A stretch of 55,008 nt of DNA from Planctomycetaceae bacterium (GCA_027487375.1 JAIYDQ010000048.1:1-55008), one strand, 5' to 3'; shown: positions 5,669-28,656, counted from the first letter of the stretch. Numbers and translations are program-made. The notes: a model not told the origin generated them from the letters alone.

Positions 5669-6613
5669 CTAATGCGAATGCGAGTGTTGCTCATGGCCGT
5701 CACCTTCGTGAAGGTGAGCCGGTTCAAGAAACCCGATTGCCCACGCGATTGCGATGCCGATGATCAGAACAACCGACAGTCTTACGCGATTGTGCGAATG
5801 AAACTCCATCTCTGGCAAAAGATCCGAAAGCGCAATACACAAAAAGACACCAGCCGAAAAAGCCAGCCCCCAACCTGCAATCGATTGAGCCATAGGTCCA
5901 CCCAAGCTTCCGAAAAGAAGTACGAGCATCGCGCCAACAGGCACCATCGATGAAAACAGAATATTGACCAGTGCGCATTTACCGCTCGATGCTCCCTGAG
6001 CTCGCATCAGTGATGTAATCGACATAGCGTCTAGTGGCTTATGAAGTAAGATCGCGAGGAAAACACCAAAGCCCAACAGATTTGAATGCCCGTGCGCGTG
6101 ATTCGCTTCCACCTGCATCGTCGAAACCAATGCGACACCGTCCAGAAGGGTATGAAAGCCGAGCCCAACCAATACACCAATCCAACTTAACCCCGATGCA
6201 TGCGAATGATCGTGGTGATGGGCGTGTGAACCGTGATCATGAGAATGATCGTGGTCACATTTTGCCGAGTGTTGATCTTTTCCGGTCCCGTCTGTTGAGT
6301 CGCTGAAATCTACTTCATCATGATTATGAAAATGAAAGAACCTCAACATAAAGAACATGATCACCATACCGGTCATCATTGCCCAAGAAACTTCACCCAA
6401 ACGTGCACTTCCGAGTTCGTGTACGGCATGCGGCAACAAATGAAATACCGCAATACCAAGCATCAACCCGCCAACCAAGCTGATCAAAGTCTGCATTCGT
6501 GTATGAGTAAAACGAATGAACTTTGGGAGCCAACCGCCGAGCAAGCTTGCCGCGACAATGATAAGGCTGTAGATCGCAAGCAGGCCCAAAAATGAGCTAT
6601 TCAGTGGTGGCAT
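5669..6613 (-). CDS. ZIP-family divalent metal (zinc) transporter
   Basis: 314 aa and multi-pass hydrophobic. It has a His-rich loop HDHSHDHGSHAHHHDHSH and ZIP-type motifs FHLLPHAVHE and ALSDLLPEMEFH. Confidence 0.85.
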   Translation of the reverse strand: MPPLNSSFLGLLAIYSLIIVAASLLGGWLPKFIRFTHTRMQTLISLVGGLMLGIAVFHLLPHAVHELGSARLGEVSWAMMTGMVIMFFMLRFFHFHNHDEVDFSDSTDGTGKDQHSAKCDHDHSHDHGSHAHHHDHSHASGLSWIGVLVGLGFHTLLDGVALVSTMQVEANHAHGHSNLLGFGVFLAILLHKPLDAMSITSLMRAQGASSGKCALVNILFSSMVPVGAMLVLLFGSLGGPMAQSIAGWGLAFSAGVFLCIALSDLLPEMEFHSHNRVRLSVVLIIGIAIAWAIGFLEPAHLHEGDGHEQHSHSH

Positions 6614-7002: not shown

Positions 7003-8460
7003 TTAGCTATTTGTAGTCGCGGTTGCTAGCTCGCGAACCGCAATGGGAGCGATCTGGTAAGCTCGTGATCGGAAGAGGAAGTCAATCAAGTTGCCTTCGT
7101 GAGGCTGCAGCCAATTGAGCTTGCTGGTTGGAATCGGGCCGATGTTTAATCGGTCGATATGAACAGCATCTGTCAACTCCTCGATCCACGAGGAATCGTT
7201 CGTTAGAGCCGTTCCAACAAGCGTCGGGCCGATCGCTCCGATCATCTGCTTCTGAGGGCACTCGACGACCGAGACAAATGGGAACATGTACTCCTTCATC
7301 GCAACAGCTCTCATTGGGCCGTCAGCATGAACGACAACTGGTCGCAAATAAGCACATCGCTCGTGCTCCACCAAACGGGTTCCAAATCCAGCTGTCATGT
7401 CAGTAACGCCTGATTCAGCAAAGTCTTGCTGAACCATCGACCAGGTTCCTGTTGCCATCGCTGGGTTCGTGAAAGCAGCGAGTTGAGACGTTGGGTCCGA
7501 TGGTGGCTTGATCTCGATACCACCAATTCGTTCCGCGATAGCAGCAGCAATCTCTTTCGTATGTCGCGAGGCCCAGATACCAGAGCAGTTGATACAACTA
7601 CGACCGGAATTGCTTAAGACACTTTCAACCATCATGTCCAAGTAATCTTCCCATTGATCTACGCAATCATCACCGAGCAAAATCTTGGACCAACCTGGCC
7701 CGTGGGCTTGGACTCGGGGATTCCCCGCATACTGCTGAACAGTTTGTGCACTACCAAAAATCATAGCTCGCGGTGACTTACTCAGGATAGTCGAACCAAC
7801 ATCATGCGAACCCGGATACAGACAGAACGCTTCGGCTGGGATGCCCGCTTCGATGAAAGCGGCAATCATTCGATAGGGAGTCCAAGGTTCTTGCGAGCCC
7901 GGCTTGAGAACGAGTCCAACTTGCAATGCAACTGCCGGAAGCCACAGCGTGTGAACTCCCGGTGAGTTGTTCGGAAGAACGGCTCCAAGGATCGGTGACT
8001 GGCACTGAAAAGAGACCGTAACGCCGCGTCCCTCTTCCCCGTAACCTCGCGAGAATATTTCCAAGTCCAATCCGCGTGTTAAACAGTCGAGAATCTTCGG
8101 CATGTTGTGGAGCACGAAAGCGTTCTTCATCATGTTCCCGCGGCACATATGCTCGGGAAGCCCCGTGCTAGCCGATTGTTGATGAACAAAGTCATCTACC
8201 GACTGTTGACCATCGCCCACATTGAGCGTTGCCGTTTCAAAAAGCTGAGCCGCCTTGGCTACCTTCTCCATCAGTTCTGCAGAGCTGAGGCGTTTAAGAG
8301 CCGCACGTGCTTGCGGAGCTTTACGGATATCCATCTGCACCATGCCACCATTGACTTGGCCGATCTTCGCAATGGGAGCCCCGGTTTCAAAGTGGATTAC
8401 ATCCTGGAACTCGAGCGATTTGTAGGGCTTACCCCAACGAAGCGGACTTAGCGTTATCAC
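7003..8460 (-). CDS. Aldehyde-dehydrogenase-superfamily protein, probably a non-hydrolysing (LuxC/acyl-CoA-reductase-like) type
   Basis: 485 aa with a GTG start preceded by AGGAG. ALDH-fold blocks are VLPNNSPGVH...LVLKPGSQEPWT and IFGSAQT. Candidate catalytic Cys are C289/C292 in GRSCINCSG. The position of the ELGGK general-base motif reads AHGPGWSK, with no Glu. Confidence 0.6.
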   Translation of the reverse strand: MITLSPLRWGKPYKSLEFQDVIHFETGAPIAKIGQVNGGMVQMDIRKAPQARAALKRLSSAELMEKVAKAAQLFETATLNVGDGQQSVDDFVHQQSASTGLPEHMCRGNMMKNAFVLHNMPKILDCLTRGLDLEIFSRGYGEEGRGVTVSFQCQSPILGAVLPNNSPGVHTLWLPAVALQVGLVLKPGSQEPWTPYRMIAAFIEAGIPAEAFCLYPGSHDVGSTILSKSPRAMIFGSAQTVQQYAGNPRVQAHGPGWSKILLGDDCVDQWEDYLDMMVESVLSNSGRSCINCSGIWASRHTKEIAAAIAERIGGIEIKPPSDPTSQLAAFTNPAMATGTWSMVQQDFAESGVTDMTAGFGTRLVEHERCAYLRPVVVHADGPMRAVAMKEYMFPFVSVVECPQKQMIGAIGPTLVGTALTNDSSWIEELTDAVHIDRLNIGPIPTSKLNWLQPHEGNLIDFLFRSRAYQIAPIAVRELATATTNS

Positions 8461-8644
8461 TTGGAATTATCTCCTGCAAACTTGAATACTTGTAAATATT
8501 TTGCCGTGCAATCGTTGTTGCAAGTTTTAATTGCTACTCGCAGTAATAGCGTTCGATTGCGTGCTATCTGGTAAATTGTGGGAAAGTCGAAACCCGTGGC
8601 TAGCGCCATCGGCTCAGGCTTCATCAGCCCAGTGGTATCGTAAG

Positions 8645-9790
8645 TTAGTAAACTCCGACAGTGGTTCCACCAGGAATTCCGTGGAAGGGTCTGACACCGC
8701 TGATTCCATCCCAAGGGTACTTAGCGAAGGGTTGCTCACGCTCTCCCTCGTCTCGCTCAAGGAACCCCGGAACAAAGAACTCTTTGGTCATCGTATAAAG
8801 CTTGGCTCGACCAGTTTTCCCGAAGCCAACAACTTGATTGTGATCATCAAAGTCTACGACTTCAACAACCGCTCGAGGTTGCGGTGCGTAGTAAGCAATC
8901 GTGTAATCGTCATGTGCACCAATCGGGCGCGAACAAGCCAAGCCCATCAATGTGTTACCGTATGTTGGCGTCATGAAAACGCCACCTTCATCAGAGGGGC
9001 CTCCGAGCAACTCTTCTACACAGAACCGAGTCCACTGTGGAGTAAACTCTGTTCCGCCAGAAAATATGCCTGTGATACCGACTTCTTGGATACTTGTTCC
9101 GCGTTCTGCGAGACCATACGCCAGAGACTCTAGGAGTTTCGGGGTCGTGAACATGCACTTGATATCGTGACCAGCGGTGAGAATTGTGATGGCTTGATCG
9201 ATACAGTGCTTCTTGTACTCCTCAAGATGTTCCATCCAACCTTTCTTGATCAACTTAATAACCCAGCGCGGATCTAAGTCGATACAAAAACTAATGCCGC
9301 CGCGATATTGACAGAGATGTTCGACGGCCAGTCGCAAGCGACGCGGACCTGAAGGACCCAGCATCAACCAATTCGATCCTTTAGGAAAAAATTCGTCTGG
9401 AAGCGTGTGACTAAACAACTCGTAGTCGATTCGGAAGTCATCGATCACCACCCGGCTCTTAGGAATACCGGTTGTCCCTCCGGTCTCAAAGACGTACGTA
9501 GGCTTGCCTGCCATGCCAGCAGGTATCCAGCGATTCACCGGCCCGCCTCGCAACCAGTCGTCCTCGAACAGCGGAAACTTTTTGATATCTTCGAAGCACT
9601 TCACTTCGGTGAGCGGATCAAACTTCAACTCTTTCTTTTTCTGCAGCCAAAATGGTGATCCAGTCGACTCGTGAAAGTGCCACTGAACTGTTTCGTAAGC
9701 GTGGCTGTCGAGGACCGCTTTTGCATTGGCGACTTGAGCAGCCAGGTCAGAACTACTGGAAACATTCGAGGAGGATTCAACTGTGCTCAT
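8645..9790 (-). CDS. Short ANL-superfamily adenylate-forming enzyme (PaaK/LuxE-like acyl-AMP or acyl-protein synthetase)
   Basis: 381 aa. The P-loop-like motif YVFETGGTTGIPKSR corresponds to (S/T)SG(S/T)TGxPK. It is too short to contain the large C-terminal domain of classical acyl-CoA synthetases. Confidence 0.6.
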   Translation of the reverse strand: MSTVESSSNVSSSSDLAAQVANAKAVLDSHAYETVQWHFHESTGSPFWLQKKKELKFDPLTEVKCFEDIKKFPLFEDDWLRGGPVNRWIPAGMAGKPTYVFETGGTTGIPKSRVVIDDFRIDYELFSHTLPDEFFPKGSNWLMLGPSGPRRLRLAVEHLCQYRGGISFCIDLDPRWVIKLIKKGWMEHLEEYKKHCIDQAITILTAGHDIKCMFTTPKLLESLAYGLAERGTSIQEVGITGIFSGGTEFTPQWTRFCVEELLGGPSDEGGVFMTPTYGNTLMGLACSRPIGAHDDYTIAYYAPQPRAVVEVVDFDDHNQVVGFGKTGRAKLYTMTKEFFVPGFLERDEGEREQPFAKYPWDGISGVRPFHGIPGGTTVGVY

Positions 9791-9908
9791 GGGCAGAACC
9801 TGCGTAGGTAGAATAAGGTTTCAAGGTGGGGACGCGTCGGAAAATCACCGCAACGACTTAGGATCGAGCAAAACACTTGCTTTGCAGACTCCTAGTATAT
9901 CAAAGATG

Positions 9909-10883
9909 TCAAACCGTGGCTCGAGTCCATTCAATCACTGAATGGCACAATAAATCTCGGACCCCCGTGTAAGCGTGATCACCACCGGGAACGACTTGGA
10001 GGGACTGAGACCGGGCTCCGGAGGACTTCCACGTGTCCATTAGGACCTTGTCGGCGTCGCGAAAGCTGGACCTTGGCCCTCGAACTTCATGTTCTCCAAA
10101 AACCCAAAGTGTCGGGCAGGTATTTCGGTCATGGAGAGAATGGTAGTCGTAGCGACTCGCGGGTCCATATTTGTCGATGTAGGTCCCAGCACTCACGATC
10201 ATCGGTTGTGGATAACGAATGGTAAAGAGCGTTTCTGGCTTTCCCGCATCACAAAACTGCTGCGCCTCTGCCAGATTTGCTGCATAAGCCGACGCATACT
10301 TCGCATCATCTTTGAGCGTATTGGATTGCAACCGAGGCGGCGACAGCAAAACGAGTCGCGAAAGCTTGAGAGCAATCTTCTCGGAGTTGGATTCTAACTT
10401 GGATTCGGTATCGCACTGAGAAGCGTACAGCAACGACTTGACGGCTCCCAGGCTATGCCCCAGCAGATTGATTTTTTCGTACCCCTGCCGCTGGACCGCA
10501 TCAACCCAAGCTGCGATGTCGACTGCTCCATCGCAAATCATTTCATAGGCCGCACCGCATCGAGAGTGAGCCGACCCGACGGCGAAGTAGGCAATCGCAT
10601 CACGGCCACGCGTATTAATCCGAAGAACATCCGCACCGATGCTTAGCAGACTGGCCGAAATGGATGATAGGAGTGAGGAATTATAGAAATTACCTGCGAC
10701 CCCGTGGACAATTAACCAACACTCTCGACCGATAGCATGCGTGTCAGGCGAAACCTGTGACTCTTGAAAGAAACCGTGAAGACGTAACCCGTCGATGGTT
10801 TGAGTTTCAACGAGCTTTCCAAATGCACTGCCATCAAACGCCATAGAAAAAGGCTGGTCGACAGACCAGCCCTCCGAATGCAA
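9909..10883 (-). CDS. Alpha/beta-fold hydrolase (possible acyltransferase or thioesterase)
   Basis: 324 aa. It has the nucleophile elbow LLGHSLGAV and a C-terminal GGDHAY candidate catalytic His. The start is TTG at 10883, with an alternative ATG at 10844. Confidence 0.7.
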   Translation of the reverse strand: MHSEGWSVDQPFSMAFDGSAFGKLVETQTIDGLRLHGFFQESQVSPDTHAIGRECWLIVHGVAGNFYNSSLLSSISASLLSIGADVLRINTRGRDAIAYFAVGSAHSRCGAAYEMICDGAVDIAAWVDAVQRQGYEKINLLGHSLGAVKSLLYASQCDTESKLESNSEKIALKLSRLVLLSPPRLQSNTLKDDAKYASAYAANLAEAQQFCDAGKPETLFTIRYPQPMIVSAGTYIDKYGPASRYDYHSLHDRNTCPTLWVFGEHEVRGPRSSFRDADKVLMDTWKSSGARSQSLQVVPGGDHAYTGVRDLLCHSVIEWTRATV

Positions 10884-10904: not shown

Positions 10905-12176
10905 CTAGTTGATCGGACTTACGATAACCGGTGGCTGGTTCACAATAAACCCACCATTGTTATTGTCATCGTTGTTGGCAATTGCAGCAGCAACACCTGC
11001 GAGGGCAGCAATCCCGAGAATTCCGCTACCACCCAAGCCTCCGCCAAGTCCGTGTGCTCCGCCACCTCCTCCTCCGAACCCACCCATTCCGCCACCACAA
11101 CCACAGGACTGGGCACACATCGCTTGTTCTTCAACAATAACTTCCGCACAGGCAGGCTCAACAATCGTTTCGCAGATTTCAACAATCGGAGTCTCAACAA
11201 CCGTTTCACAAACTTGTGCGACTTCACAAGTTACCACTTCACAACTGTCAACAACTTCGCAGTTCAGCTTTGGGCAACTCTTGTGGAACAGTCCGACAAG
11301 TTGCTTTCCATCGGCAGAAGTCTGACTGACTTTGGCATCCAAGACTTGGAACGAGGTCGCAACGAAACCGTTTGAACCAGCAGCGATAAATCCGTAGACT
11401 CCTTCACTGAGACCACTGATTCCAAAGTGACCGTTAACGTCGACTTCGCTACGAGCGACTTCAACTCCATCCTTTAACACATAGACCGACATGCCAGTCA
11501 AATTGCTATCGGCCCCTGACATCCCGGAACGAGCGAGTTGCCCCTGAAGCTTGCCTTCAGCATCCAAACGGACGACTGGCGAACTTGCAAATCGACGGTT
11601 CGAAGCAATCGGGTCCGCTGGGGCAGCGACCGAGGAATCGACTCGAGTTAGTGAAGTAGGAACGGTTTGCGAGCGGACAATTTCCTTAATCTTGTCTCCG
11701 GCTGACCGAATAATTCGGACGTCGATGCTACTTGGAAGATGTTCGGCTGATTTATAGTCCAAAATTTGGACCGCAAAAGCCGCTATTGACTGATTCGTTC
11801 GAGAAACAAGGGAGTAAAGCCCAGGCTCTACATCGTTGTAAGTAAAATTTCCGTCGACGTCGGATGTCGCAACGTAAGCGACTTTTCCATCTTTGATCAA
11901 TGCAACCGGCAGCCCCTCGATAGGAACCGACTTGGTGTCCGTTAGCTGTACCAATGTACCGCTTACACGCCCCGATGCATCGGATCGCACCCACTGACGC
12001 GAAAACAAATCATTCAGTGGGCTATCGACGGCTACAGAAGAGGCTGAATCGACAAGGCTGTAGTCAGTCTCGACGCCACGAACCGAATCGCACGGCATGA
12101 AACCAAAACTCGCGAAACCTAGGCTCAATGCGCCCAGGCCAGCGGTTGCGGATCGACCGCGAAACCTAATAAACAT
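10905..12176 (-). CDS. Secreted protein with two carboxypeptidase-regulatory-like beta-sandwich repeats and a Cys/acidic plus Gly-rich C-terminal module
   Basis: The best start is ATG at 12176 (MFIRFRGRSATAGLGALSLGFASFGF, signal-like); the tracked ORF extends to 12251. Two internal repeats of the G-x-V-D-x-N-G-x-F...L-x-x-G-x-Y type are present (DVDGNFTYNDVEPGLYSLV and VDVNGHFGISGLSEGVYGFI). The C-terminus reads CEVVDSCEVVTCEVAQVCETVVETPIVEICETIVEPAC...GCGGGMGGFGGGGGGAHGLGGGLGGSG followed by a hydrophobic segment. Confidence 0.6.
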   Translation of the reverse strand: MFIRFRGRSATAGLGALSLGFASFGFMPCDSVRGVETDYSLVDSASSVAVDSPLNDLFSRQWVRSDASGRVSGTLVQLTDTKSVPIEGLPVALIKDGKVAYVATSDVDGNFTYNDVEPGLYSLVSRTNQSIAAFAVQILDYKSAEHLPSSIDVRIIRSAGDKIKEIVRSQTVPTSLTRVDSSVAAPADPIASNRRFASSPVVRLDAEGKLQGQLARSGMSGADSNLTGMSVYVLKDGVEVARSEVDVNGHFGISGLSEGVYGFIAAGSNGFVATSFQVLDAKVSQTSADGKQLVGLFHKSCPKLNCEVVDSCEVVTCEVAQVCETVVETPIVEICETIVEPACAEVIVEEQAMCAQSCGCGGGMGGFGGGGGGAHGLGGGLGGSGILGIAALAGVAAAIANNDDNNNGGFIVNQPPVIVSPIN

Positions 12177-12535
12177 GATGTACCTCAAGTGATGCTTGGC
12201 TAGCAATAGAACCCTACTGCAGTTATTCATTACCCAAAGTACCCATACCACCCAGCCTGTTCAACCGCTTAATTCCTAATTATCAACAAATTCCTCAATT
12301 GTTCGCATTCGTAATGATGAGTTCTAGAAGCGATTGAACTTCGTCTTTTTTCAGGGATGAGCTTTAAAAACACTAGATTTTCGTCACAGATAGGGAAAGC
12401 AGCAAAAAGTTTCTAAGGCCATAACGACTCAAATGAGACATTTGCGTCGAACTTCCCTGCATCGTTTTGCCTTAGAATGATGGGGAACAACTCCTCTTGA
12501 ACGCCCTGAGTTAAGAGTCCGCCGGGTAAACCGCT

Positions 12536-13573
12536 GTGAAAAATCAATCTATTGTTTATGCAGGCCAAAGCGATTGTGGCCTTAAGCGAAGCTCTAATCA
12601 GGACAGCTTTATCGCTGCCGATTTGACGCGATCGCTCCGAGTCGAATCGACGAACCTGTCCATCCAAACACCATCGCGACTTTGCGGAGGAGCGTTCGGG
12701 CACTTGTTCATCGTTGCAGACGGAATGGGAGGGCACCAAGCAGGAAATCGGGCAAGCGAACTCGCAATCCATTACTTTATCACGAATCTCCTCAACAACT
12801 TGCGATGGACTCTGCGACCCGATCGCAATAGCGAACAATCCTTTCTAGCTGAGCTACAAGACGTTCTGGTCGAAACCCATCGAGCAATAATTTCTGAAAG
12901 TAAATCGACCCCCGAGTTCAAAGGCATGGGAACAACGCTGACGGCCGCGTATGTCGTTTGGCCTCGATTGTGGATCGTGCATGCAGGCGACACGCGATGC
13001 TACATTTCACGACGTGGCGAACTTCAACAACTGACCCGAGATCATACGATGGCAAGCCAGTTGCTTGAGCAAGGTGCTATTACGGCTGAAGAGGCTAGCA
13101 AATCACATTGGGCAAGCGTCCTATGGAATGCCATTGGTGCCGACGCAGACGAAGTTATCGCCGATACTTACCAATTGGAGCTTCAGCCCGGAGATCGACT
13201 CTTGCTCTGCTCCGACGGTTTGAATAAACATGTCGATGACTTGGCCATCAACAAATTACTTCAAAATACCCAAGACCCGACAACCGCGTGTCAAAAGCTG
13301 ATCGACCTAGCGAATTCGCTCGGTGGATCAGACAACATCACAGCCATCGTCGCCAACTTTAGTAAGTACAACGAACCCGAACTCGTTACATCGATAGTTC
13401 CGTCGATTGAACACGAGGCCATTTTGGAAGACCTCAGCCGATTCGCTTCGAACGCCGACACAACAGGCGCATTTCCAGAAATCAAAGGTCAAACGGCTCA
13501 GAAAACTGAAGGCACGAACCCAGAGACAGAATCCTCCAAGGACACTGGAGAGATCGAAACCTTGGACTACTAA
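12536..13573 (+). CDS. PP2C-family Ser/Thr protein phosphatase
   Basis: GTG start. Motifs SDCGLKRSSNQDS, VADGMGGHQAG, LLCSDGL and GGSDNITAIV are present. It has an acidic C-terminal tail. Confidence 0.9.
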   Translation: MKNQSIVYAGQSDCGLKRSSNQDSFIAADLTRSLRVESTNLSIQTPSRLCGGAFGHLFIVADGMGGHQAGNRASELAIHYFITNLLNNLRWTLRPDRNSEQSFLAELQDVLVETHRAIISESKSTPEFKGMGTTLTAAYVVWPRLWIVHAGDTRCYISRRGELQQLTRDHTMASQLLEQGAITAEEASKSHWASVLWNAIGADADEVIADTYQLELQPGDRLLLCSDGLNKHVDDLAINKLLQNTQDPTTACQKLIDLANSLGGSDNITAIVANFSKYNEPELVTSIVPSIEHEAILEDLSRFASNADTTGAFPEIKGQTAQKTEGTNPETESSKDTGEIETLDY

Positions 13574-13584
13574 GAAACCCTCAC

Positions 13585-14925
13585 ATGCGAACCACGCTTT
13601 TCTTTATACCCCACCAACTTGGCCCGTTTCCGCTTTGGGGGTGGGGCTGGGTTGCTTGTGCGATTTTGCTGGTTTATTCGATGGTGTTGCTATATCGATG
13701 GTTTCAAAAGCAACCACTTCAGTCTCTTTGCTCTGATATCGTTGGTTGGTTGATGGTCTTGGCGATCGTCGTTTTCGTAGCCCCCGCAATGGAGACTCGC
13801 TTTCCTGTTCCCTCCGGTGCGGCGGCCGAGTTAACTCCCCAGACGATGCCTGGGTTTGTAGCCGCGACGGACACATCGCCCGCAATGCGAATAGTGGGGC
13901 TGCCGATTCGCGGGTATGGCGTTTTCCTCATGCTTGGGGTGGTATCCGCAGTTTCAATTGTTGCCGTTCGAAGCAAGACCATAGGAGTCTCGATAGATCA
14001 AGTTCTCGCCCTCGCCATCTGGTCAGTAATCGGCGGAATGGTTGGTGCAAGAATGTTTTACGTGATCCAAAAATGGAGCGAAATCAAAGGCGACAGTCTG
14101 GTTGAGAAGCTTTTCGAGGCCTTCAAATTCACAGAAGGAGGCCTTGTTGTCTATGGAGGACTCTTCGGCGGATTGTTGGTTGCCATGATTTGGTGCTTTG
14201 TAAAGAAAGTGCCGATGCTCGCGATCGCTGATCTGGCAACGCCGGCATTCTTGATCGGGCTTGCCTTCGGAAGATTGGGCTGCTTGATGAATGGATGTTG
14301 CTACGGAGGAATTTGTGAGTCTGGACTTCCTGCGATTACTTTTCCAATGGGATCGCCACCCTATGTTGATCAGTTGGTATCAGGAAAACTGGTAGGCATT
14401 CAGTGGTCGGCAACGTCCCTCGGGCGTGATGGAGTACGGATCGAAAAAGTTGAACCCGATAGTTGGGCTCAGACCAATCAACTGCAACCAGGTGACCTGA
14501 TCGACCAACCGAGTCGTTTTCAAATCTCGCCCCCTCCAATCGGATTGGATCCAGCCAGTCCCAGCCAAGTAGAACTGCTTTGGGATCGTAACAGTCAACT
14601 TTGGTCTCCAAGTACCCCGTTGCCCCCGCGTAGCCTTCCGTCGCATCCTTCCCAGATATACGCTTCGATCAACGCCATCCTTTTATGTGGATTTTTGTTC
14701 TGGCTTTGGCCGAACACGCAGCGGTCGGGAACGGTCTTGGGACTTGGATTGATCGGGTACGGAATCAGCCGGATCTTTGAGGAGTTCATCCGTGTTGACG
14801 AATCAGGACAATTCGGAACGTCACTTAGCATCTCGCAATGGATAAGTCTCGTAGGCATCCTGGTCGGGATTGCGATACTCACGGTGCCGAGGGAAAAGGC
14901 TCCGCGGGTTGCGATACCGACTTGA
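13585..14925 (+). CDS. lgt: Prolipoprotein diacylglyceryl transferase, extended form
   Basis: 446 aa. Lgt blocks are GLPIRGYGVFLMLGVV, GGLVVYGGLFGG, GRLGCLMNGCCYGG and PSQIYASINAILL. It has about 100 extra N-terminal residues and an insertion of about 100 residues. Confidence 0.85.
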   Translation: MRTTLFFIPHQLGPFPLWGWGWVACAILLVYSMVLLYRWFQKQPLQSLCSDIVGWLMVLAIVVFVAPAMETRFPVPSGAAAELTPQTMPGFVAATDTSPAMRIVGLPIRGYGVFLMLGVVSAVSIVAVRSKTIGVSIDQVLALAIWSVIGGMVGARMFYVIQKWSEIKGDSLVEKLFEAFKFTEGGLVVYGGLFGGLLVAMIWCFVKKVPMLAIADLATPAFLIGLAFGRLGCLMNGCCYGGICESGLPAITFPMGSPPYVDQLVSGKLVGIQWSATSLGRDGVRIEKVEPDSWAQTNQLQPGDLIDQPSRFQISPPPIGLDPASPSQVELLWDRNSQLWSPSTPLPPRSLPSHPSQIYASINAILLCGFLFWLWPNTQRSGTVLGLGLIGYGISRIFEEFIRVDESGQFGTSLSISQWISLVGILVGIAILTVPREKAPRVAIPT

Positions 14926-15002
14926 TCGATCACCGGTTATGATGGTCCCCAAACGGTCCGCTTTCGAAGCCAAACTAAGTCGTCAGGTTGCAAAGGAAAT
15001 CC

Positions 15003-15860
15003 ATGAGTCTTCAGATTTACATCAACGGTCAGTTCTTCAGCAAGGAAGATGCAAAGATCAGCGTCTATGACCACGGACTGCTCTATGGTGATGGTGTTTT
15101 CGAAGGCTTGCGAGCATACTCGGGCAAGGTCTTCCGTCTTCAACAGCACATCGATCGACTTTACGAATCGGCACGTGCGATCATGCTTGAAATTCCGATG
15201 ACGATGGACGCTCTTTCCGCCGCCGTCAATGAGACCGTAGCGAAGAACTCGCTCCAAGATGCATACATTCGACTAGTGGTCACCCGTGGCTCAGGCGCGC
15301 TAGGGCTCGATCCTAACAAGACGAGCAATCCACAAATCATCATCATCGCTGATTCGATTACGCTCTACCCAGCCGAGTTCTATGAGAAGGGAATGGCGAT
15401 CATAACTGCTAGCACCATTCGAAATCACCCAGCAGCACTCAGCCCTCGTATCAAGTCACTCAACTACCTCAACAATATTTTGGCCAAAATCGAAGGCTTG
15501 CAAGCGGGTTGCGTTGAAGCCCTCATGCTCAACCACAAAGGCGAAGTCGCAGAATGCACCGGGGATAACATCTTTATCGTTAAAGATGGTGTCCTGAAAA
15601 CTCCTCCGACGGACGCGGGTATCCTTGAAGGCATTACGCGCAACGCGGTCATCGATCTTGCTAGAGAACACGGAATACCGTGTATCGAAACAGCCATGAC
15701 TCGTCACGATGTGATTGTCGCCGACGAATGCTTCTTGACCGGCAGTGCCGCAGAAGTCATACCCGTTGTGAAAGTCGATTCACGATCCATCGGTGACGGA
15801 CAAGTCGGCCCAATATCTAAAAAGCTACAATCGGCTTTCAAAAAAATGGTCCGGATGTAA
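15003..15860 (+). CDS. ilvE: Branched-chain-amino-acid aminotransferase (class IV PLP enzyme)
   Basis: ATG at 15003 is preceded by AAGGAAA; the tracked ORF starts at TTG 14988. Strings IYINGQFFSKEDAKISVYDHGLLYGDGVFEGLRAY and AECTGDNIFIV are present. Confidence 0.8.
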   Translation: MSLQIYINGQFFSKEDAKISVYDHGLLYGDGVFEGLRAYSGKVFRLQQHIDRLYESARAIMLEIPMTMDALSAAVNETVAKNSLQDAYIRLVVTRGSGALGLDPNKTSNPQIIIIADSITLYPAEFYEKGMAIITASTIRNHPAALSPRIKSLNYLNNILAKIEGLQAGCVEALMLNHKGEVAECTGDNIFIVKDGVLKTPPTDAGILEGITRNAVIDLAREHGIPCIETAMTRHDVIVADECFLTGSAAEVIPVVKVDSRSIGDGQVGPISKKLQSAFKKMVRM

Positions 15861-15902
15861 CTTCGAGTGGAACCCCCTGCATAAGGCTCCGTTTCTAAAC
15901 AC

Positions 15903-15957
15903 GTAGCGGCGTCTCTCCGAGACGCGAGATTGCAGCGTCTCGGAGAGACGCTGCGAC
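15903..15957. repeat. Double GAGAC hairpin (family A)
   Basis: GCGTCTC-TCC-GAGACGC (15909-15925) and CAGCGTCTC-GGA-GAGACGCTG (15933-15953) are reverse complements of one another. The region can fold as two small hairpins or as one hairpin of about 23 bp. Confidence 0.7.
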
Positions 15958-16000
15958 GTGGAAACGAGTATAGAAACAGAAGCTAACCTTCACTACATCG

Positions 16001-16134
16001 ATTCTTAGGTTGATGTAGCTATCGATTAAGCATGATGACCAGTCGTATGATAGGCTTGCAGCCTGTCCATAGCGAAACCGACAGGCTGCAAGCCTTTCCT
16101 ACCGGAATCTGGCTAGCTACCGTTACCTGAGAAT
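16001..16134. repeat. Foldback (MITE/REP-like) element, family B copy 1
   Basis: Terminal inverted repeats ATTCTTAGGT and ACCTGAGAAT. The central stem is a perfect 16 bp, AGGCTTGCAGCCTGTC (16052-16067) with GACAGGCTGCAAGCCT (16080-16095). The arms align with 52079-52197. Confidence 0.7.
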
Positions 16135-16230
16135 TGCTCTAATGTGTCATGAACACTTACGGGGGTACGAGGATTCTGTTCGTGGCCAATCCGAACGGGC
16201 TGGAGTTCGTGAAACACGTCCCACGTGCGG

Positions 16231-16722
16231 CTATCGAAACTTCGCGGCTGCTTCTACCGCCATCACGTCGCAGCGCTCATTTTCGGGATGTCCGGCATGG
16301 CCTTTGACATGATGAAATGAAATGTCGTGAGTTTGTTTGAGCGAGTCGAGTATCTTCCAAAGATCGGCGTTTTTCAACTCTTCAAAGCGGGAGCCTGACT
16401 TCCTACGCCATCCATTCTTTTTCCAGCCGGCCATCCAAGAATTCAAGCCCTGCAAAACGTATTGACTGTCCGAATAGAGCTGCACATTACACGGTCGCGA
16501 CAAGGCCTTTAGCCCCTCGATCACGGCCATTAACTCCATTCGATTGTTGGTCGTCATTGGCTCGCCCCCTGATTCTGCTCGTTCCTTCTTAGTCGGACCG
16601 TCACGCAGAATATAAGCCCAACCTCCAGGCCCCGGATTACCGCTACATGCGCCATCGGTAAAAAGTGAAATCAGCCGCCGACCAACCGGCGCATCGCCAC
16701 CATCAATGCGATCGTCTGTCAT
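16231..16722 (-). CDS. rnhA: Ribonuclease HI
   Basis: ATG at 16722; the tracked TTG start is at 16731. Motifs FTDGACSGNPGPGGWAYIL, TNNRMELMAVIEGL, LYSDSQYV and VKGHAGHPENERCD are present. Confidence 0.9.
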   Translation of the reverse strand: MTDDRIDGGDAPVGRRLISLFTDGACSGNPGPGGWAYILRDGPTKKERAESGGEPMTTNNRMELMAVIEGLKALSRPCNVQLYSDSQYVLQGLNSWMAGWKKNGWRRKSGSRFEELKNADLWKILDSLKQTHDISFHHVKGHAGHPENERCDVMAVEAAAKFR

Positions 16723-17156
16723 GAAAAGCAAAATGTCTACGAGTATAGTTTTAGAACGCCCCAGGCTCTAAAGCCCGACAAGACCCGCAGTATATCCCAA
16801 ATCTTTTATTTTGACTTCGGCAGGTCGCCAAATCCCCGAAGCCCGACGCGACGAGTTCACCTGCCCCGTTAGGATTTTCTTTTGTGTTAAACCGAATCAC
16901 CTTTAGAAACCCTAATAGATCTGCATGACTGGGACCTGTGGACATACTTCGACCATATTGACAACAACATGTACCCCTTAAGTTTCCCCCCCATTTGCAC
17001 CAGATACTTTGAAATTTTGCACATAGCAATTTCAGCTTTACAACATTCGTGACGAATGCGATTGGCGGCTACCGCTACGCGCAGGGCCGAATCGCGCTCA
17101 AGAGCCCCTAATCCATTCTGCCTTTTCCCCAATCAGATCAGTGTTCTTGAGTAGGT

Positions 17157-17189
17157 CTCATGGTTCCGCGCAGATACTGCAACCATGAG
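17157..17189 (-). terminator. Stem-loop 10 nt downstream of the CrtI-family gene stop (putative terminator, no U-tract)
   Basis: CTCATGGTT pairs with AACCATGAG (9 bp), with an inner GCAG-ATA-CTGC stem. Confidence 0.35.
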
Positions 17190-17198
17190 CTTTGCTCA

Positions 17199-18686
17199 TT
17201 AGCCGGGAACTAAGTTGAGAAGTTGTTTGCAGGTGATTCGCGAGGATTCATAGATGACCGGAAGACCGCTTCCTGGATGGGTTCCACCACCGACAAGGTA
17301 AACGCGGTCAAGTTCTTCAAACCGATTGTGGGGGCGCAGGTGGAGCATCTGTCCAAGGTTATGGGCGAGATTGAACGTCGCTCCTTTATGTACAAAGTAA
17401 TCATCGCGCCAATTGGCAGGCGTGACAACTTTTTCGTATCGAATGCGCGATCGAATATCAGTGAGACCGACTTCCTCTAGCCTTTGAAGAGTAACCTCTC
17501 GATAGAGTGCTGTTTGCTTCGCATCCCATGGAGTGTTCGATGACAAATGGGGAACAGGTACAAGCACATAAATTGTGCTTTTACCTGGCGGCGCCATCGA
17601 AGGATCTACGATGCAGGGATTGTGTATGTAAATGGAAGGCTCCATAGGAAGCACTTTTTCGTCTTCGATTTGCCTTAGGTTGCCTTCGTAGTCTTTCGCA
17701 ATATGAATCGTGTGATGCGGCAAGTCTTCATAACGACCATCGATGCCAAGGTACATCATAAAAGTGCTACATGAAAACTTTTTCTGAGCGATCTTCTCGT
17801 TCGACCATCGCTTGCGAAAATGATTAGGAACCAGATGCTGCATTGCATGAGCAAAGTCTGCGTTGACGACGGTCGCGTCTGCCTCGTAGCGACCTTGGTC
17901 GGTCTTCACTGCAACAACTCGTTTGCCTTTAAATTCAAGTTCGGTAACGGGTTCGCTAAGTCGAAACTTCACTCCCATCTCTTTCGCAATCTCCGCCATC
18001 CGCTCGTTGACTCGGCAGCATCCTCCGTATGGATGAAAAACGCCGTACTCGTATTCCAAGAACGAAAGTATCGAAAAGAGGCTTGGGCACTTGAAGGGCG
18101 ACATGCCTAAGTATTTCGATTGAAACGAAAATGCAAGTACGAGCCGAGGGTCTTTGAAAAACGATTCCAACTCTTGCCCGAGCGACTTCCAGGGTTTGAC
18201 ATGGGAGGCCGCGCTGATCAATGAAGGTCGCAAGAGATCCTTCATGCTATTGAAGGGAGACTCTAAAATAGGCCGAAACTTGGCAAGCTTGACTCGATTG
18301 ACGTCCATGTATCGCTTGAGAGCCCCAGCATCTTGCGGCGAGAGAGCGACGACTTGCTTTTCCATTCGCTCCAAGTCCGGAGTGCAGTCCAGTTGCCCAC
18401 CGTTGCCGAAACTTATTCGGTACTGAGGGTCCAGCCGATGCATGGGAACCTCTTTGAAGAGATCCCGTCCGACAGACTGGAAAATCTCTTGGAGGACTCG
18501 CGGATAGAGGAAAAATGTCGGACCGGTATCGAAGCGAAAACCGTCTGATTCGATTGCCGAGGAGCGTCCGCCGACACGATCCAGCGACTCAATAACCGTA
18601 ACATCGACCCCTGAACCGGCAAGTTGAAGGGCGGTCGTCAATCCGCCAGGCCCGGCTCCAATAACGATGACTTTGCGAGTCGACAT
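17199..18686 (-). CDS. Phytoene-desaturase (CrtI) family FAD-dependent oxidoreductase
   Basis: 495 aa. The N-terminal dinucleotide fold is KVIVIGAGPGGLTTALQLAGSGVDVTVIESLDRVGGR. FDTGPTFF and the C-terminal VYLVGGGTHPGSGLPV are also present. Confidence 0.8.
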   Translation of the reverse strand: MSTRKVIVIGAGPGGLTTALQLAGSGVDVTVIESLDRVGGRSSAIESDGFRFDTGPTFFLYPRVLQEIFQSVGRDLFKEVPMHRLDPQYRISFGNGGQLDCTPDLERMEKQVVALSPQDAGALKRYMDVNRVKLAKFRPILESPFNSMKDLLRPSLISAASHVKPWKSLGQELESFFKDPRLVLAFSFQSKYLGMSPFKCPSLFSILSFLEYEYGVFHPYGGCCRVNERMAEIAKEMGVKFRLSEPVTELEFKGKRVVAVKTDQGRYEADATVVNADFAHAMQHLVPNHFRKRWSNEKIAQKKFSCSTFMMYLGIDGRYEDLPHHTIHIAKDYEGNLRQIEDEKVLPMEPSIYIHNPCIVDPSMAPPGKSTIYVLVPVPHLSSNTPWDAKQTALYREVTLQRLEEVGLTDIRSRIRYEKVVTPANWRDDYFVHKGATFNLAHNLGQMLHLRPHNRFEELDRVYLVGGGTHPGSGLPVIYESSRITCKQLLNLVPG

Positions 18687-22165: not shown

Positions 22166-22516
22166 GATTCCCAAAAAGACGGGGGATTTTGTATTTTTCT
22201 CGGCTGCGAAATCGCAAATTCAACGTACCAAAATCGTCCATTGACGGACCGATAAAGCCCTGAAATCAGCACAATCGTCACAGATTTTAACCGAACTCCT
22301 CCTAGTTTAGCAGCACAAATCAATCCGAGTTGGCACCAAATCTCGTTTCTTCAAACGATTTATCGGGCGTGGACGGGTTGAAGTGGCCTGAATAAGATTA
22401 ATTAGTCGGTGCCACGCACTGCAGCGAAATATTCGTCGCATCGTGCATGTCGCCATCAAGAATTTTCACAACCTTCCGTAACTCAAGATTACGGTCCCCC
22501 GCCTGGAGTCTATTTG

Positions 22517-23365
22517 ATGCCTCTTCTTGTTTCAGTACGTCGCGCGCTGTCAGCCCACCTTTCCGTCGGCCTGTTTGCAACCGGAATGTTTTTTAATGCC
22601 GTTGCTTCACAACCCTCAGCAATCGGAGCTGAATGGGCAGACCTCCAAATGACGTTTGTGTTTGACGAAACCGAGCTACCAAAGGTTGAACCGGTCGCGA
22701 TGGACAAGGACCCCGCTTGCGTGGCTCTCTGGAAGGGTGCCAAGCCTATGGCAGAGGACCTAATCGTCGATCCTACAACCAAGGGAATTAAGAACATTGT
22801 CGTTTATCCGGACCCAAAGAAATCCGGAATCGAAGCGACCGACGCACACCCAGACTTGCTAGCAGCCCCCGAAAAGTCCGTCGTGCTCGATAACGTGAAG
22901 TGCGTGTTTGAACCTCACATCTTTAGTGTCCGACCAGGGCAAACTGTGAATGTCAAAAACTCCGACACGATGGGACATAACGCCCTCTTCAACGTCTTCG
23001 CTAATGCAGGCGTCAATCCTCTGATCCCAGCCGGCGGCTCAAAGGACGTCACCTTCGCAAAAGCTGAACGAGCTCCTATCCCTGTGCAGTGCAACATCCA
23101 CCCCTGGATGATCGCTTACATGCTCATCTTCGATCAACCCTATGCAGGGATCAGCGATGCCAATGGCGTTCTCAAGATCGAGAAACTACCTGCTGGAAAG
23201 CCAATCACCTTCAAGGTGTGGCATGAGAAAATGGATAAATCCATCGACAGCGTTACGCTCGACGGCAAACCTGTCGAATGGAAGAAGGGCCTCGTCGAAT
23301 TTACACTCAAGCCGGGCATGAATAACCTTGGCGTTGTGAAGATTAAGAAGACCGAGTTTAAATAA
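22517..23365 (+). CDS. Secreted cupredoxin-like (type-1 copper motif) protein with a C-terminal Ig/CarboxypepD_reg-like domain
   Basis: ATG at 22517 gives the signal peptide MPLLVSVRRALSAHLSVGLFATGMFFNAVASQ; the tracked GTG start is at 22409. Candidate copper ligands are MGHNALF and CNIHPWM (C-x2-H-x2-M spacing, as in amicyanin). Confidence 0.6.
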   Translation: MPLLVSVRRALSAHLSVGLFATGMFFNAVASQPSAIGAEWADLQMTFVFDETELPKVEPVAMDKDPACVALWKGAKPMAEDLIVDPTTKGIKNIVVYPDPKKSGIEATDAHPDLLAAPEKSVVLDNVKCVFEPHIFSVRPGQTVNVKNSDTMGHNALFNVFANAGVNPLIPAGGSKDVTFAKAERAPIPVQCNIHPWMIAYMLIFDQPYAGISDANGVLKIEKLPAGKPITFKVWHEKMDKSIDSVTLDGKPVEWKKGLVEFTLKPGMNNLGVVKIKKTEFK

Positions 23366-27225: not shown

Positions 27226-28656
27226 CTAGTTTTTGATTTCTACCGGTGGAGTAAGTGCGGGCGTGTCGTTTTTATCCTGAGTCGTTGACGGCTTACCGTT
27301 TAACTCAACCAGTTCTTTCCAACGCGCAAGGACCGCGTCTCGTTTGGAATTGTCGGCCACAGGAAGAGCAAGGCTGGTAGCTGCAAAGCCACGGTAAGGA
27401 TGCCATTGAGCTCTTGGATAGTACTTCGTCACATCTTCGCTCAATGCCTTCAGTCCAGCCGCTAAAGCCAAGTCCCGATACTGAGCTTGAACATCTTCGA
27501 TCTTTGGAGTGATCGGGGACTCAGGGTCGATTGCTTCAATACGAGGCACTCCAAAAGGTGCAGGAACCTGTCTCATGGAAATGTTCGTCGATGCCTGAAA
27601 CACGGGCGTGAGTCCGCGATCGTCGGATGTCCAGGGTTCAATCGTCGGGAGGTCTTCCGGTTCCGCAAATCGCATCATGCAAGCCATCGATATCTCGTAC
27701 AAGTCGGAACCAAGATTTTTATCCGCTAGATACTTTCTCGCTAAGTCTTTACCGTCCTCAATTCCGAGCTCCATGCATGTGATCATGATCATCTGCGGTT
27801 CCGAGGTCGCCGTTTTCATCCACTCCCGAAAAAGTGCTTTGAGCGGCGTTCCAAGAGCAGTACCCTGAACTTCTTGCGGAAACGGGGTCCGTCGAGTCAG
27901 AGTCGAGGTTGTGAGTTCGATATCTCGAGGCACATTCACGTTACGCTTATGGAGTTGGACACTCGCGAACATCAGCGTCACGACATCACCGAGTCTCGTT
28001 TCTTCGCCTGTTCGAAGCGACGTAAGAACATCGCGCCCAAGTTTTTCAGTTTGCGTAAGGAGTACATCGCTCCCCGTGAGAACGTTTCGTCCAATTTTCT
28101 GTGCCTCATCAAGAAGCATTTCGCTATCGGCAAAATCATTTTCAGCGAAGCTTGGATGCGCTTCGATCATCTCTTTGAACAGTCGTTTGGAGAGCCTGCC
28201 AGGTCCTACGATCTCAGAAAAACTGGGCCAGTTATCAAGGCCGTACGTTTTATTGGGGTCAGATTCTCGAAGAAACTGATCAACGCGTTTACCAAGGTCG
28301 TCATTTTCGATCGCAATCGCTAGGCTCGCACAACGTGCCCTAACCTCGGGCTCGTCCGACTCGATAGCTGATCGCTTAACAAAAGGCAGTGCCAGGCTCC
28401 CAGATCTGTACAAACGATCCGCGGCAGTCTCACGCAAGTCAGTTGACGAGGAACCAAGGTCGCGTATCCAGCCTTGAATGACCGCGGGATCGGGATCGCG
28501 AGAAACCAACTCGCCGGTGAGTTGGCTCTCTTGCGCGATCGCCGGACGCTGTTGAACGAGTTCGCCTCCAAGCACGATAACGGAGCAATACGCGGCAGCG
28601 ATTGCCAACTGCTTCGAAATTGGATGAGTTAAGGTACTAAGCATAAGCCTGCTCAT
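27226..28656 (-). CDS. Hypothetical exported protein with an N-terminal HEAT-like repeat
   Basis: 476 aa with an ATG start and an N-terminal hydrophobic segment LAIAAAYCSVIVLGG. The stretch IQGWIRDLGSSSTDLRETAADRLYRSGSLALPFV...EPEVRARCASL is HEAT-like. There are no catalytic motifs. Confidence 0.5.
   Translation of the reverse strand: MSRLMLSTLTHPISKQLAIAAAYCSVIVLGGELVQQRPAIAQESQLTGELVSRDPDPAVIQGWIRDLGSSSTDLRETAADRLYRSGSLALPFVKRSAIESDEPEVRARCASLAIAIENDDLGKRVDQFLRESDPNKTYGLDNWPSFSEIVGPGRLSKRLFKEMIEAHPSFAENDFADSEMLLDEAQKIGRNVLTGSDVLLTQTEKLGRDVLTSLRTGEETRLGDVVTLMFASVQLHKRNVNVPRDIELTTSTLTRRTPFPQEVQGTALGTPLKALFREWMKTATSEPQMIMITCMELGIEDGKDLARKYLADKNLGSDLYEISMACMMRFAEPEDLPTIEPWTSDDRGLTPVFQASTNISMRQVPAPFGVPRIEAIDPESPITPKIEDVQAQYRDLALAAGLKALSEDVTKYYPRAQWHPYRGFAATSLALPVADNSKRDAVLARWKELVELNGKPSTTQDKNDTPALTPPVEIKN

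Follow-up and report, generated by a model that had tools for sequence, protein, structure and literature searches.

A core gene pair of Pirellulales with the features of a probable two-component, EhpF/EhpG-type carboxylic acid reductase

To our knowledge, two-protein carboxylate reductases, in which a short ANL adenylating enzyme is combined with a partner of the aldehyde dehydrogenase (ALDH) fold, are known from a few specialised pathways, namely bioluminescence, phenazine tailoring and grixazone formation. Single-chain carboxylic acid reductases (CARs; A-T-R) and fungal nonribosomal peptide synthetase-like reductases likewise convert carboxylates to aldehydes via an acyl-adenylate at the expense of ATP and NADPH. 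In the bioluminescence system, LuxE is devoid of the ANL C-terminal domain and relays the acyl group via a conserved Cys in a short C-terminal tail, whereas LuxC has the ALDH fold (PMC9157457). As summarised in PMC10179220, which cites Suzuki 2007, GriC, an AMP-binding protein, and the partner protein GriD reduce 3-amino-4-hydroxybenzoate via acyl-AMP. Here we describe two adjacent genes, for a short ANL enzyme and an ALDH-like protein, on a 55,008-nucleotide stretch of DNA from a Planctomycetaceae bacterium (GCA_027487375.1, JAIYDQ010000048.1:1-55008), which is referred to below as the window. Judged by homology, each product is probably one of the two subunits of a carboxylic acid reductase that uses ATP and NAD(P)H and is of the EhpF/EhpG (GriC/GriD) type. 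A preliminary description of the window had grouped the two genes with an adjoining alpha/beta-hydrolase gene as a LuxD/LuxE/LuxC-like trio and had mentioned EhpF/EhpG as a secondary idea; it is the latter that direct homology bears out.

When the ANL protein was compared with the PDB using phmmer, EhpF (3hgu, 3l2k) was retrieved with an alignment of residues 31-373 and E=4e-35. Behind it came 4-chlorobenzoate ligases, at E of about 0.3 and restricted to the P-loop. The AlphaFold2 model of the protein (predicted local distance difference test, pLDDT, 89; predicted template modelling score, pTM, 0.86) matched the EhpF structures in a Foldseek search of the PDB with template modelling (TM) scores of 0.75-0.83 and E=4e-30 to 5e-27, whereas PaaK-type ligases followed 15 orders of magnitude behind, at E=2e-15 (PaaK1) or worse. 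LuxE was absent from the top 50 of these structural matches. A Pfam scan extended to E of 10 returned only AMP-binding, at a sub-cut-off E=0.01, and no LuxE; none of the NCBIfam models gave a match with E<=0.01. The sequence contains the P-loop ETGGTTGIPK and the motifs WHF..TGSPFWL, DLDPRWV, YGNTLMG and ERDE, and stops about 35 residues past the hinge-like ERDE with an invariant GVY end (...TTVGVY). Its length of 381 amino acids (aa) compares with 369 aa for EhpF and 420-500 aa for PaaK and the 4-chlorobenzoate ligases, and the large C-terminal domain, which in ANL enzymes normally performs thioesterification with coenzyme A (CoA), is missing. Neither an invariant nor a near-invariant Cys was present anywhere in the alignments of the ANL family (A1, A7). 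The assignment was made on three characters, all of which were found: similarity to EhpF exceeding that to PaaK, a P-loop without the C-terminal domain, and an ALDH-fold gene directly downstream. Sequence and model thus indicate an EhpF-type short adenylating enzyme rather than a canonical phenylacetate-CoA ligase, an outcome that the preliminary description had named as a refutation (E of about 1e-15 for PaaK against 1e-30 for EhpF).

The partner protein is related to EhpG. The authentic ehp cluster was taken from a plasmid of Pantoea agglomerans, on which the genes for EhpF (AMP-binding) and EhpG (ALDH) come after phzA/B-, D-, E-, F- and G-like genes. In BLASTP, EhpG of this cluster matched the ALDH-like protein of the window at E=2e-32 over 91% of its length. 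Aldedh was the sole Pfam match at E up to 0.01 (E=1e-20), and the NCBIfam ALDH models reached 15-46 bits against cut-offs of 440-850. The AlphaFold2 model (pLDDT 78) retrieved classical ALDH folds at TM scores of 0.67-0.76 and 13-20% identity; the top 50 fold matches were all classical ALDHs and did not include LuxC.

Active-site residues were mapped with a multiple alignment including AldA, BetB and ProA of Escherichia coli and, independently, by aligning the protein pairwise with solved ALDHs in two further comparisons. Of the two candidate catalytic residues proposed earlier, C289 and C292, it is Cys289 that occupies the position of the catalytic Cys; Asn165 corresponds to the oxyanion Asn and Glu390 to the Glu that contacts the nicotinamide ribose. 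Cys289 and Glu390 are invariant, Asn165 is nearly so, and the Rossmann blocks are kept. At the position of the general-base Glu (equivalent of Glu268), the protein has His253, reading QAHGPGW where AldA and BetB read LELGGK, and His is found there in the whole clade. The alignment restored no Glu, in agreement with the loss reported in the preliminary description. The corresponding residue is Gln in EhpG and Tyr in a haloarchaeal homologue, which marks the loss of Glu as a trait of the family. It may be speculated that the conserved His253 serves as a base for Cys289. The equivalent of position 195 is Ser (KPGSQEP), in place of the Glu in KPSE of AldA and BetB. The usual role of Glu195 is to keep NADP out, and the Ser may hint at NADPH as the reductant. 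The four characters examined for the EhpG type, i.e. homology to EhpG, an ALDH fold, a retained catalytic Cys and the absence of the general-base Glu, were all observed.

The window proteins were mapped by tblastn onto 82 Pirellulales loci, and counts were taken only from those with enough flanking sequence. The ALDH-like gene was located directly downstream of the ANL gene on the same strand in 71 of 73 loci, whereas the hydrolase gene was directly upstream of the ANL gene in 33 of 72 (46%). The selected unit is therefore the pair, and the synteny envisaged for the trio holds for these two genes and not for the hydrolase. Median identities to the window proteins point the same way: 82% for ANL, 76% for the ALDH-like protein and 37% for the hydrolase. 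The pair is split in loci L041 and L072; the 483-aa open reading frame (ORF) downstream in L072 is not an ALDH, not even a diverged one. The ANL protein is at least 76% identical throughout the 82 loci. The best 120 clusters retrieved with each protein were at least 80% (ANL) and at least 73% (ALDH-like) identical to it, their named sources being Pirellulaceae, Pirellula, Aureliella, Crateriforma and Novipirellula. The genes are real, and each of the two proteins has thousands of homologues. A close relative is present in at least 565 genomes, one genome per species having been scanned. The names of the 80 genomes listed, where given, are all planctomycete (Pirellula, Pirellulaceae, Aureliella and broader labels), and the nearest relative among those listed is a metagenome-assembled genome (MAG) from Lake Pavin, with 97% identity. 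We regard the two as core genes of Pirellulales that are inherited vertically as a pair, are under strong constraint and form no part of a secondary-metabolite cluster.

In order to describe the wider family, an exhaustive HMMER search was performed against 1.84 billion representative sequences; the family that it outlined is small, with 1,328 clusters reaching E<=1e-3 and 237 reaching E<=1e-30. Outside the close Pirellulales group (at least 76% identity), full-length relatives were 57% (P0241), 42-44% (P0264 and P0267) and, for the rest, 29-39% identical. The alignment defines a subfamily by the motifs GP[ST]GPRRLRLA[VI]EHL, YYAPQPRA and PTYGNTLMGLA, to which belong every one of the Pirellulales proteins, one protein from Acidobacteriota (67% identity) and the proteins of a sister branch (48-50%), assigned to Verrucomicrobia or Planctomycetes where the source gives a name. 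EhpF, the Streptomyces proteins annotated as 'arylcarboxylate reductase' or 'phenazine biosynthesis' and the other sampled members have GP[ST]GPH instead, and the haloarchaeal ANL protein, with PPGGANNAG, has neither GPRR nor GPH. We take this position to be the A4 region of ANL enzymes. The Streptomyces 'arylcarboxylate reductases' (NCBI annotation) are members of the family at about 31% identity. Literature searches for EhpF/EhpG, GriC/GriD, arylcarboxylate reductase, two-component CAR and Planctomycetes found no paper describing the GPRR subfamily.

Two plasmid-borne loci of the wider family were seen in addition. Plasmid 2 of Halalkalicoccus jeotgali, a haloarchaeal megaplasmid (L007:4520-8578), encodes an SSF symporter, a short ANL protein and an ALDH-like protein, the last with the Tyr at the general-base position, so that the two-protein reductase architecture exists in Archaea too. 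On a plasmid of Streptomyces sp. NBC_00316 (L006:6938-15020), an 'arylcarboxylate reductase' gene is directly followed by a type I polyketide synthase gene, with no ALDH-like gene in the incomplete gene table. In some clusters, the short ANL enzyme may pass its acyl-adenylate to other partners.

Relatives of the pair outside Pirellulales are often embedded in a larger operon. Four sister-branch and Acidobacteriota loci were examined, and three of them (L088, L089 and L091) contain a tight co-directional arrangement of genes for an SSF symporter, ANL, ALDH and an Fe-dependent alcohol dehydrogenase (Fe-ADH); the fourth, from Acidobacteriota, has the ANL/ALDH pair alone. A metagenome scan seeded with the sister branch yielded 80 loci, the long ones of which were mapped by tblastn. 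A recurrent operon emerged, composed of genes for PropA and PropB (about 770 and about 530 aa, respectively), a small DUF3311-like protein, SSF, ANL, ALDH and Fe-ADH (for example L108, L126, L129, L143, L152 and L156; the propeller genes are also found at L089:2064-6021). Co-directional propeller genes are located upstream in 28 of the 32 sister-branch loci with enough flank. PropA and PropB match BamB-like (pyrroloquinoline quinone, PQQ, repeat) beta-propellers only, and no PQQ-dehydrogenase model came near its cut-off. In five loci an MFS transporter replaces the SSF protein, its best models being aromatic-acid:H+ and sialate:H+ symporters. The monocarboxylate permease MctP is built from DUF3311 and SSF in combination (PMC9100948), and the SSF protein itself is equidistant from the PutP, PanF and MctP models. 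The Fe-ADH is of a generic group-III kind; it is no closer to one than to another of the ErcA, GbsB, FucO and SarD models and scores at half of their cut-offs or less. In some metagenomic loci, unrelated genes are inserted between those for ANL and ALDH (FKBP, Zeta-toxin-like, Kelch, decarboxylase).

The dehydrogenase also occurs in deeper-branching Pirellulaceae. In 6 of the 82 Pirellulaceae loci (L073, L079-L082 and L084), marine MAGs among them, Fe-ADH directly follows the pair, and it is in these six that the ALDH-like protein is most diverged from that of the window (63-67% identity). There, Fe-ADH is followed by a BamB-like beta-propeller and a HemN/HutW-like radical SAM protein, an order that recurs in the distant locus L088. 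In L073 and L079-L082 the block is longer, with genes for a GcvH-like and then a 4Fe-4S dicluster protein coming next; in L079, the whole block after the pair lies at 12574-18015. Read most economically, these arrangements would derive from an ancestral pair that was coupled to an alcohol dehydrogenase and, in some lineages, also to an acid importer; in the lineage of the window, the pair has become separated from Fe-ADH. This linkage to Fe-ADH and acid importers in relatives implies a pathway from carboxylate via aldehyde to alcohol.

The best-supported reading of the pair remains the route from acid via acyl-AMP and enzyme thioester to aldehyde that the preliminary description had outlined. 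By analogy with its homologues, the ANL protein would adenylate a carboxylate to acyl-AMP, and Cys289 of the ALDH-like partner would attack the acyl-adenylate to give an enzyme thioester, presumably by direct transfer without CoA or a carrier. A Cys relay in the manner of LuxE is not expected, since the ANL family has no conserved Cys. The thioester would then be reduced by NAD(P)H to the free aldehyde, while its hydrolysis should be inefficient because His253 replaces the general-base Glu. The aldehyde would probably be reduced further to the alcohol by an Fe-dependent alcohol dehydrogenase whose gene lies outside the window. The substrate is likely to be a small carboxylate, which in the sister branch would be imported by the MctP-type SSF or the aromatic-acid/sialate-type MFS symporter; in the lineage of the window, the acid may be freed by the upstream esterase. 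Glycine betaine (to choline), sulfoacetate, lactate, succinate, the aspartate and glutamate semialdehyde routes and hydroxycinnamates were weighed as substrates. None is named here, because nothing discriminates among the candidates.

Several points weigh against this interpretation. The gap of 184 nucleotides (nt) between the ANL and ALDH-like genes leaves their co-transcription unproven, and the ALDH model is of low confidence exactly at the active-site loops (residues 166-169, 253-256 and 287-289). No homologue of the Fe-ADH, SSF, radical-SAM or propeller genes of the extended cluster was found in the 55-kb window, so neither the dehydrogenase nor a transporter adjoins the pair. The reduction of phenazine-1,6-dicarboxylate by EhpF/EhpG is reportedly itself a proposal, derived from structure and genetics (Bera et al. 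2010, a paper that PMC3175449 cites). Finally, a gene content of alcohol dehydrogenase, ALDH and acid-activating enzyme would also suit an oxidative pathway. A broader and more tentative possibility is that the pair is the catalytic core of a widespread unrecognised primary pathway in Pirellulales and in Verrucomicrobia-type and Acidobacteriota-type bacteria, accompanied by two dedicated BamB-like propellers. Such a pathway would start from some common small carboxylate, whether brought in by an MctP-type or aromatic-acid/sialate-type symporter or released by an esterase, and would lead via the aldehyde to the alcohol.

Operation in the oxidative direction is unlikely, although it survives better than the other alternatives. 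Here the Fe-ADH would oxidise an alcohol and the ALDH-fold protein the resulting aldehyde, and the ANL enzyme would activate the acid. Alcohol-catabolic operons classically contain just such a set of genes, and the thioester chemistry of the ALDH fold is reversible in principle, as is generally known from CoA-acylating ALDHs. In a more exotic variant, the module could even be run backwards, the thioester formed during aldehyde oxidation reacting with AMP and pyrophosphate (PPi) to give the free acid and conserve ATP. However, the ALDH-like protein has lost the general-base Glu needed for release of a free acid, and the ANL enzyme has no C-terminal domain for CoA thioesterification. The linked carriers of MctP and aromatic-acid/sialate type are carboxylate importers and point to the acid as the input. 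Moreover, the characterised pair GriC/GriD, as it is presented in the source cited above, runs reductively.

The proposal that headed the preliminary description, a fatty acid reductase of the LuxD/LuxE/LuxC type, requires consideration of the hydrolase. In this scheme, the hydrolase would free a fatty acid from acyl-ACP (acyl carrier protein) or acyl-CoA, the ANL protein would acylate itself, and the fatty aldehyde produced by the ALDH-like protein would be used to make lipids, alcohols or hydrocarbons. In overall logic and in size, the three proteins do resemble LuxD, LuxE and LuxC. The C-terminal domain of ANL enzymes is missing from LuxE too, the fold of LuxC is that of ALDHs (PMC9157457), the hydrolase gene adjoins the pair in the 46% of loci mentioned above, and a 4HBT thioesterase is encoded downstream in L088. 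As a statement of family membership, however, the proposal fails: Pfam LuxE, LuxC and LuxD have no match, the ANL family ends in the invariant GVY instead of the LuxE Cys tail and has no conserved Cys at all, and LuxE and LuxC are missing from the top 50 fold matches. The characterised homologues use aryl carboxylates, and the transporters linked to the pair are for small polar carboxylates.

Nor does the hydrolase behave as a LuxD-like component. Its own Pfam matches are weak and generic (Abhydrolase_1 and Abhydrolase_6), and among 14 orthologues the recurrent matches were Abhydrolase_1, Abhydrolase_6 and Hydrolase_4; single orthologues also matched a few further generic alpha/beta-hydrolase families, and none matched a family of LuxD type. 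When a profile of the orthologues was compared with the PDB, the nearest solved relatives were cinnamoyl and chlorogenic-acid esterases (E=1e-5 to 4e-4). With the gene absent from over half of the loci, we regard the trio as highly improbable. The 14 orthologues share an invariant HG oxyanion motif, the H143-S144-L-G-A elbow, D278 and H303, and the hydrolase is therefore probably active. It has no hydrophobic N-terminus. The reading frame of 324 aa is present as previously described, but the orthologues begin about 13 codons later, and the true start is thus probably the ATG at 10844.

That the two genes are unrelated neighbours, an ordinary PaaK-like CoA ligase beside an ordinary hydrolysing aldehyde dehydrogenase, is suggested by the labels 'phenylacetate-CoA ligase PaaK-like' and 'aldehyde dehydrogenase family protein' in some sources, but is extremely improbable given their adjacency in nearly all Pirellulales loci, where gene order is otherwise poorly kept (the ZIP, SASA esterase, PP2C and Lgt neighbours of the window recur together, among the 82 loci, only in the 97%-identical locus L008), the same gene order in Verrucomicrobia, Acidobacteriota, gammaproteobacterial and haloarchaeal loci, the 15 orders of magnitude that separate EhpF from PaaK in the fold search, and the missing catalytic Glu.

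The features of the locus are collected in Table 1. The three co-directional ORFs on the minus strand, their coordinates and lengths and the gaps of 118 nt (hydrolase/ANL) and 184 nt (ANL/ALDH-like) are all as given in the preliminary description, and the motifs quoted there (GHSLGA, ETGGTTGIPKSR, LVLKPGSQEPWT, GRSCINCSG and AHGPGWSK) are all present.

Table 1. Features of the carboxylate reductase locus, in coordinates of the window.
Feature	Position	Strand	Size or basis
ALDH-fold reductase subunit, EhpG type (probable)	7003-8460	minus	485 aa; Pfam Aldedh, EhpG alignment
ANL/ALDH-like intergenic spacer	8461-8644	minus	184 nt
Short ANL adenylating subunit, EhpF type, 'GPRRLRL' subfamily (probable)	8645-9790	minus	381 aa; EhpF match
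Cytoplasmic Ser-Asp-His alpha/beta-hydrolase, esterase-like, facultative upstream neighbour (predicted)	9909-10883	minus	324 aa
CarboxypepD_reg-domain protein with Cys-rich/Gly-rich C-terminal region, membrane-anchored or secreted (predicted)	10905-12251	minus	Pfam E=3e-8

Scans of the 118- and 184-nt gaps for consensus terminator and promoter sites found none, the counts being at or below shuffled expectation. Across related loci, the ANL and ALDH-like genes are separated by about 20 to 560 nt, a variation that gives no indication of a conserved element. A 34-codon ORF was called inside the 560-nt spacer of one Pirellulaceae genome (L001:9254-9358). The GTG start of the ALDH-like gene is preceded by AGGAG at a distance of 8 nt.

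The CarboxypepD_reg protein encoded upstream of the hydrolase has ten Cys between residues 326 and 385, set in short, roughly periodic acidic repeats (C-EVVDS-C-EVVT-C-EVAQV-C-ETVV...), after which follow a poly-Gly run, a hydrophobic segment at about 405-426 and an Asn/Asp-rich tail. In 31 of 62 loci a homologue is encoded upstream of ANL, in 13 of them without the hydrolase in between, at a median identity of 40%; in 20 of 62 loci neither protein is encoded upstream. The hydrolase and the Cys-rich protein are neighbours that evolve fast and are restricted to certain lineages, mostly among Pirellula-like freshwater genomes. In one locus (L079:7472-9799), another esterase-like protein is encoded directly upstream of the ANL gene. 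It has 775 aa and a Peptidase_S9/AXE1/DLH-type serine hydrolase domain, is not homologous to the hydrolase of the window and has no homologue among the other loci examined. Non-homologous esterases at the same site might hint at a recurrent step that feeds an acid from an ester, or may be a coincidence.

The window is ordinary core chromosome and is not an island. Its composition is even, at about 50% G+C, and its housekeeping genes include those for malate synthase G, Lgt, a class IV aminotransferase, the GTPase Der, an IlvD-type dehydratase and Cys/Met enzymes dependent on pyridoxal phosphate. No tRNA genes or Rfam matches were found in the window, no phz or other biosynthetic genes near the pair, and no paa genes among the window ORFs scanned. 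The gene that directly follows the ALDH-like gene downstream, at 5669-6613 on the minus strand, encodes a metal transporter of the ZIP family, in which His is abundant at the C-terminus and very abundant in a cytoplasmic loop (HDHDHSHDHGSHAHHHDHSH). Since its synteny is kept in the 97%-identical MAG alone, this gene is probably unrelated to the pair. The prolipoprotein diacylglyceryl transferase homologue (Lgt; 13585-14925, plus strand, 446 aa) matches Pfam LGT across residues 100-433, and the spread of this match relative to a model of 240 positions indicates large insertions. Two further ORFs, at 22409-23365 (plus strand, 318 aa) and 27226-28656 (minus strand, 476 aa), have no Pfam match at E<=1e-5.

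The chemistry proposed for the pair is not in itself new. What is new is an order-wide, constrained subfamily with motifs of its own (Arg-Arg for the A4 His in the ANL protein, and His for the Glu of ALDHs), its location on the core chromosome and not in a biosynthetic cluster, and the extended operon of transporter, propellers and Fe-ADH in its relatives. Machinery otherwise met in the specialised pathways listed at the outset is here among the most conserved gene pairs of a whole order, at about 80% identity and in at least 565 species-level genomes. This points to an unrecognised and physiologically important conversion of an acid to an aldehyde, and further to an alcohol, in abundant environmental bacteria. 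Proteins so far annotated as 'hypothetical', 'PaaK-like' or 'ALDH family' gain a testable function, and two-component carboxylate reductases that dispense with a carrier are of interest as biocatalysts.

Among the known systems, the single-chain CARs have a phosphopantetheine carrier and a thioester reductase of the short-chain dehydrogenase/reductase type on one chain, whereas the pair described here has no carrier and a reductase of the ALDH fold with a Cys. LuxE and LuxC share the overall chemistry and division of labour: activation of the acid falls to a truncated ANL enzyme, and the Cys thioester, which NADPH reduces, is borne by a protein of the ALDH fold (PMC9157457). The likeness of LuxC to the ALDH-like protein is one of fold and catalytic Cys at the level of the superfamily only, and the window pair differs further from the Lux system in having no conserved ANL Cys, no Lux Pfam matches and no luciferase; a fatty-acid substrate is unlikely. 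GriC/GriD of the grixazone cluster of Streptomyces griseus, as outlined in PMC10179220, divides ATP- and NAD(P)H-dependent acid-to-aldehyde reduction between two proteins in the same manner; this likeness is drawn from the published description, and GriC/GriD, unlike the window pair, belongs to a secondary-metabolite cluster.

The closest counterpart is EhpF/EhpG from the D-alanylgriseoluteic acid cluster of Pantoea agglomerans. The genes stand in the same order, ANL before ALDH, and both products are direct homologues of the window proteins. EhpF and the ANL protein are alike in the missing C-terminal domain, and EhpG and the ALDH-like protein in retaining the catalytic Cys, lacking the general-base Glu and reading GPGxSK instead of ELGGK. 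Identity nevertheless amounts to only 30% and 24%, respectively, and the window proteins have GPRRLRL where EhpF has GPH, and His where EhpG has Gln. EhpF/EhpG are encoded in a plasmid-borne phenazine cluster and act, as proposed, on phenazine-1,6-dicarboxylate, whereas the window pair belongs to the core chromosome and is about 80% identical across an entire order.

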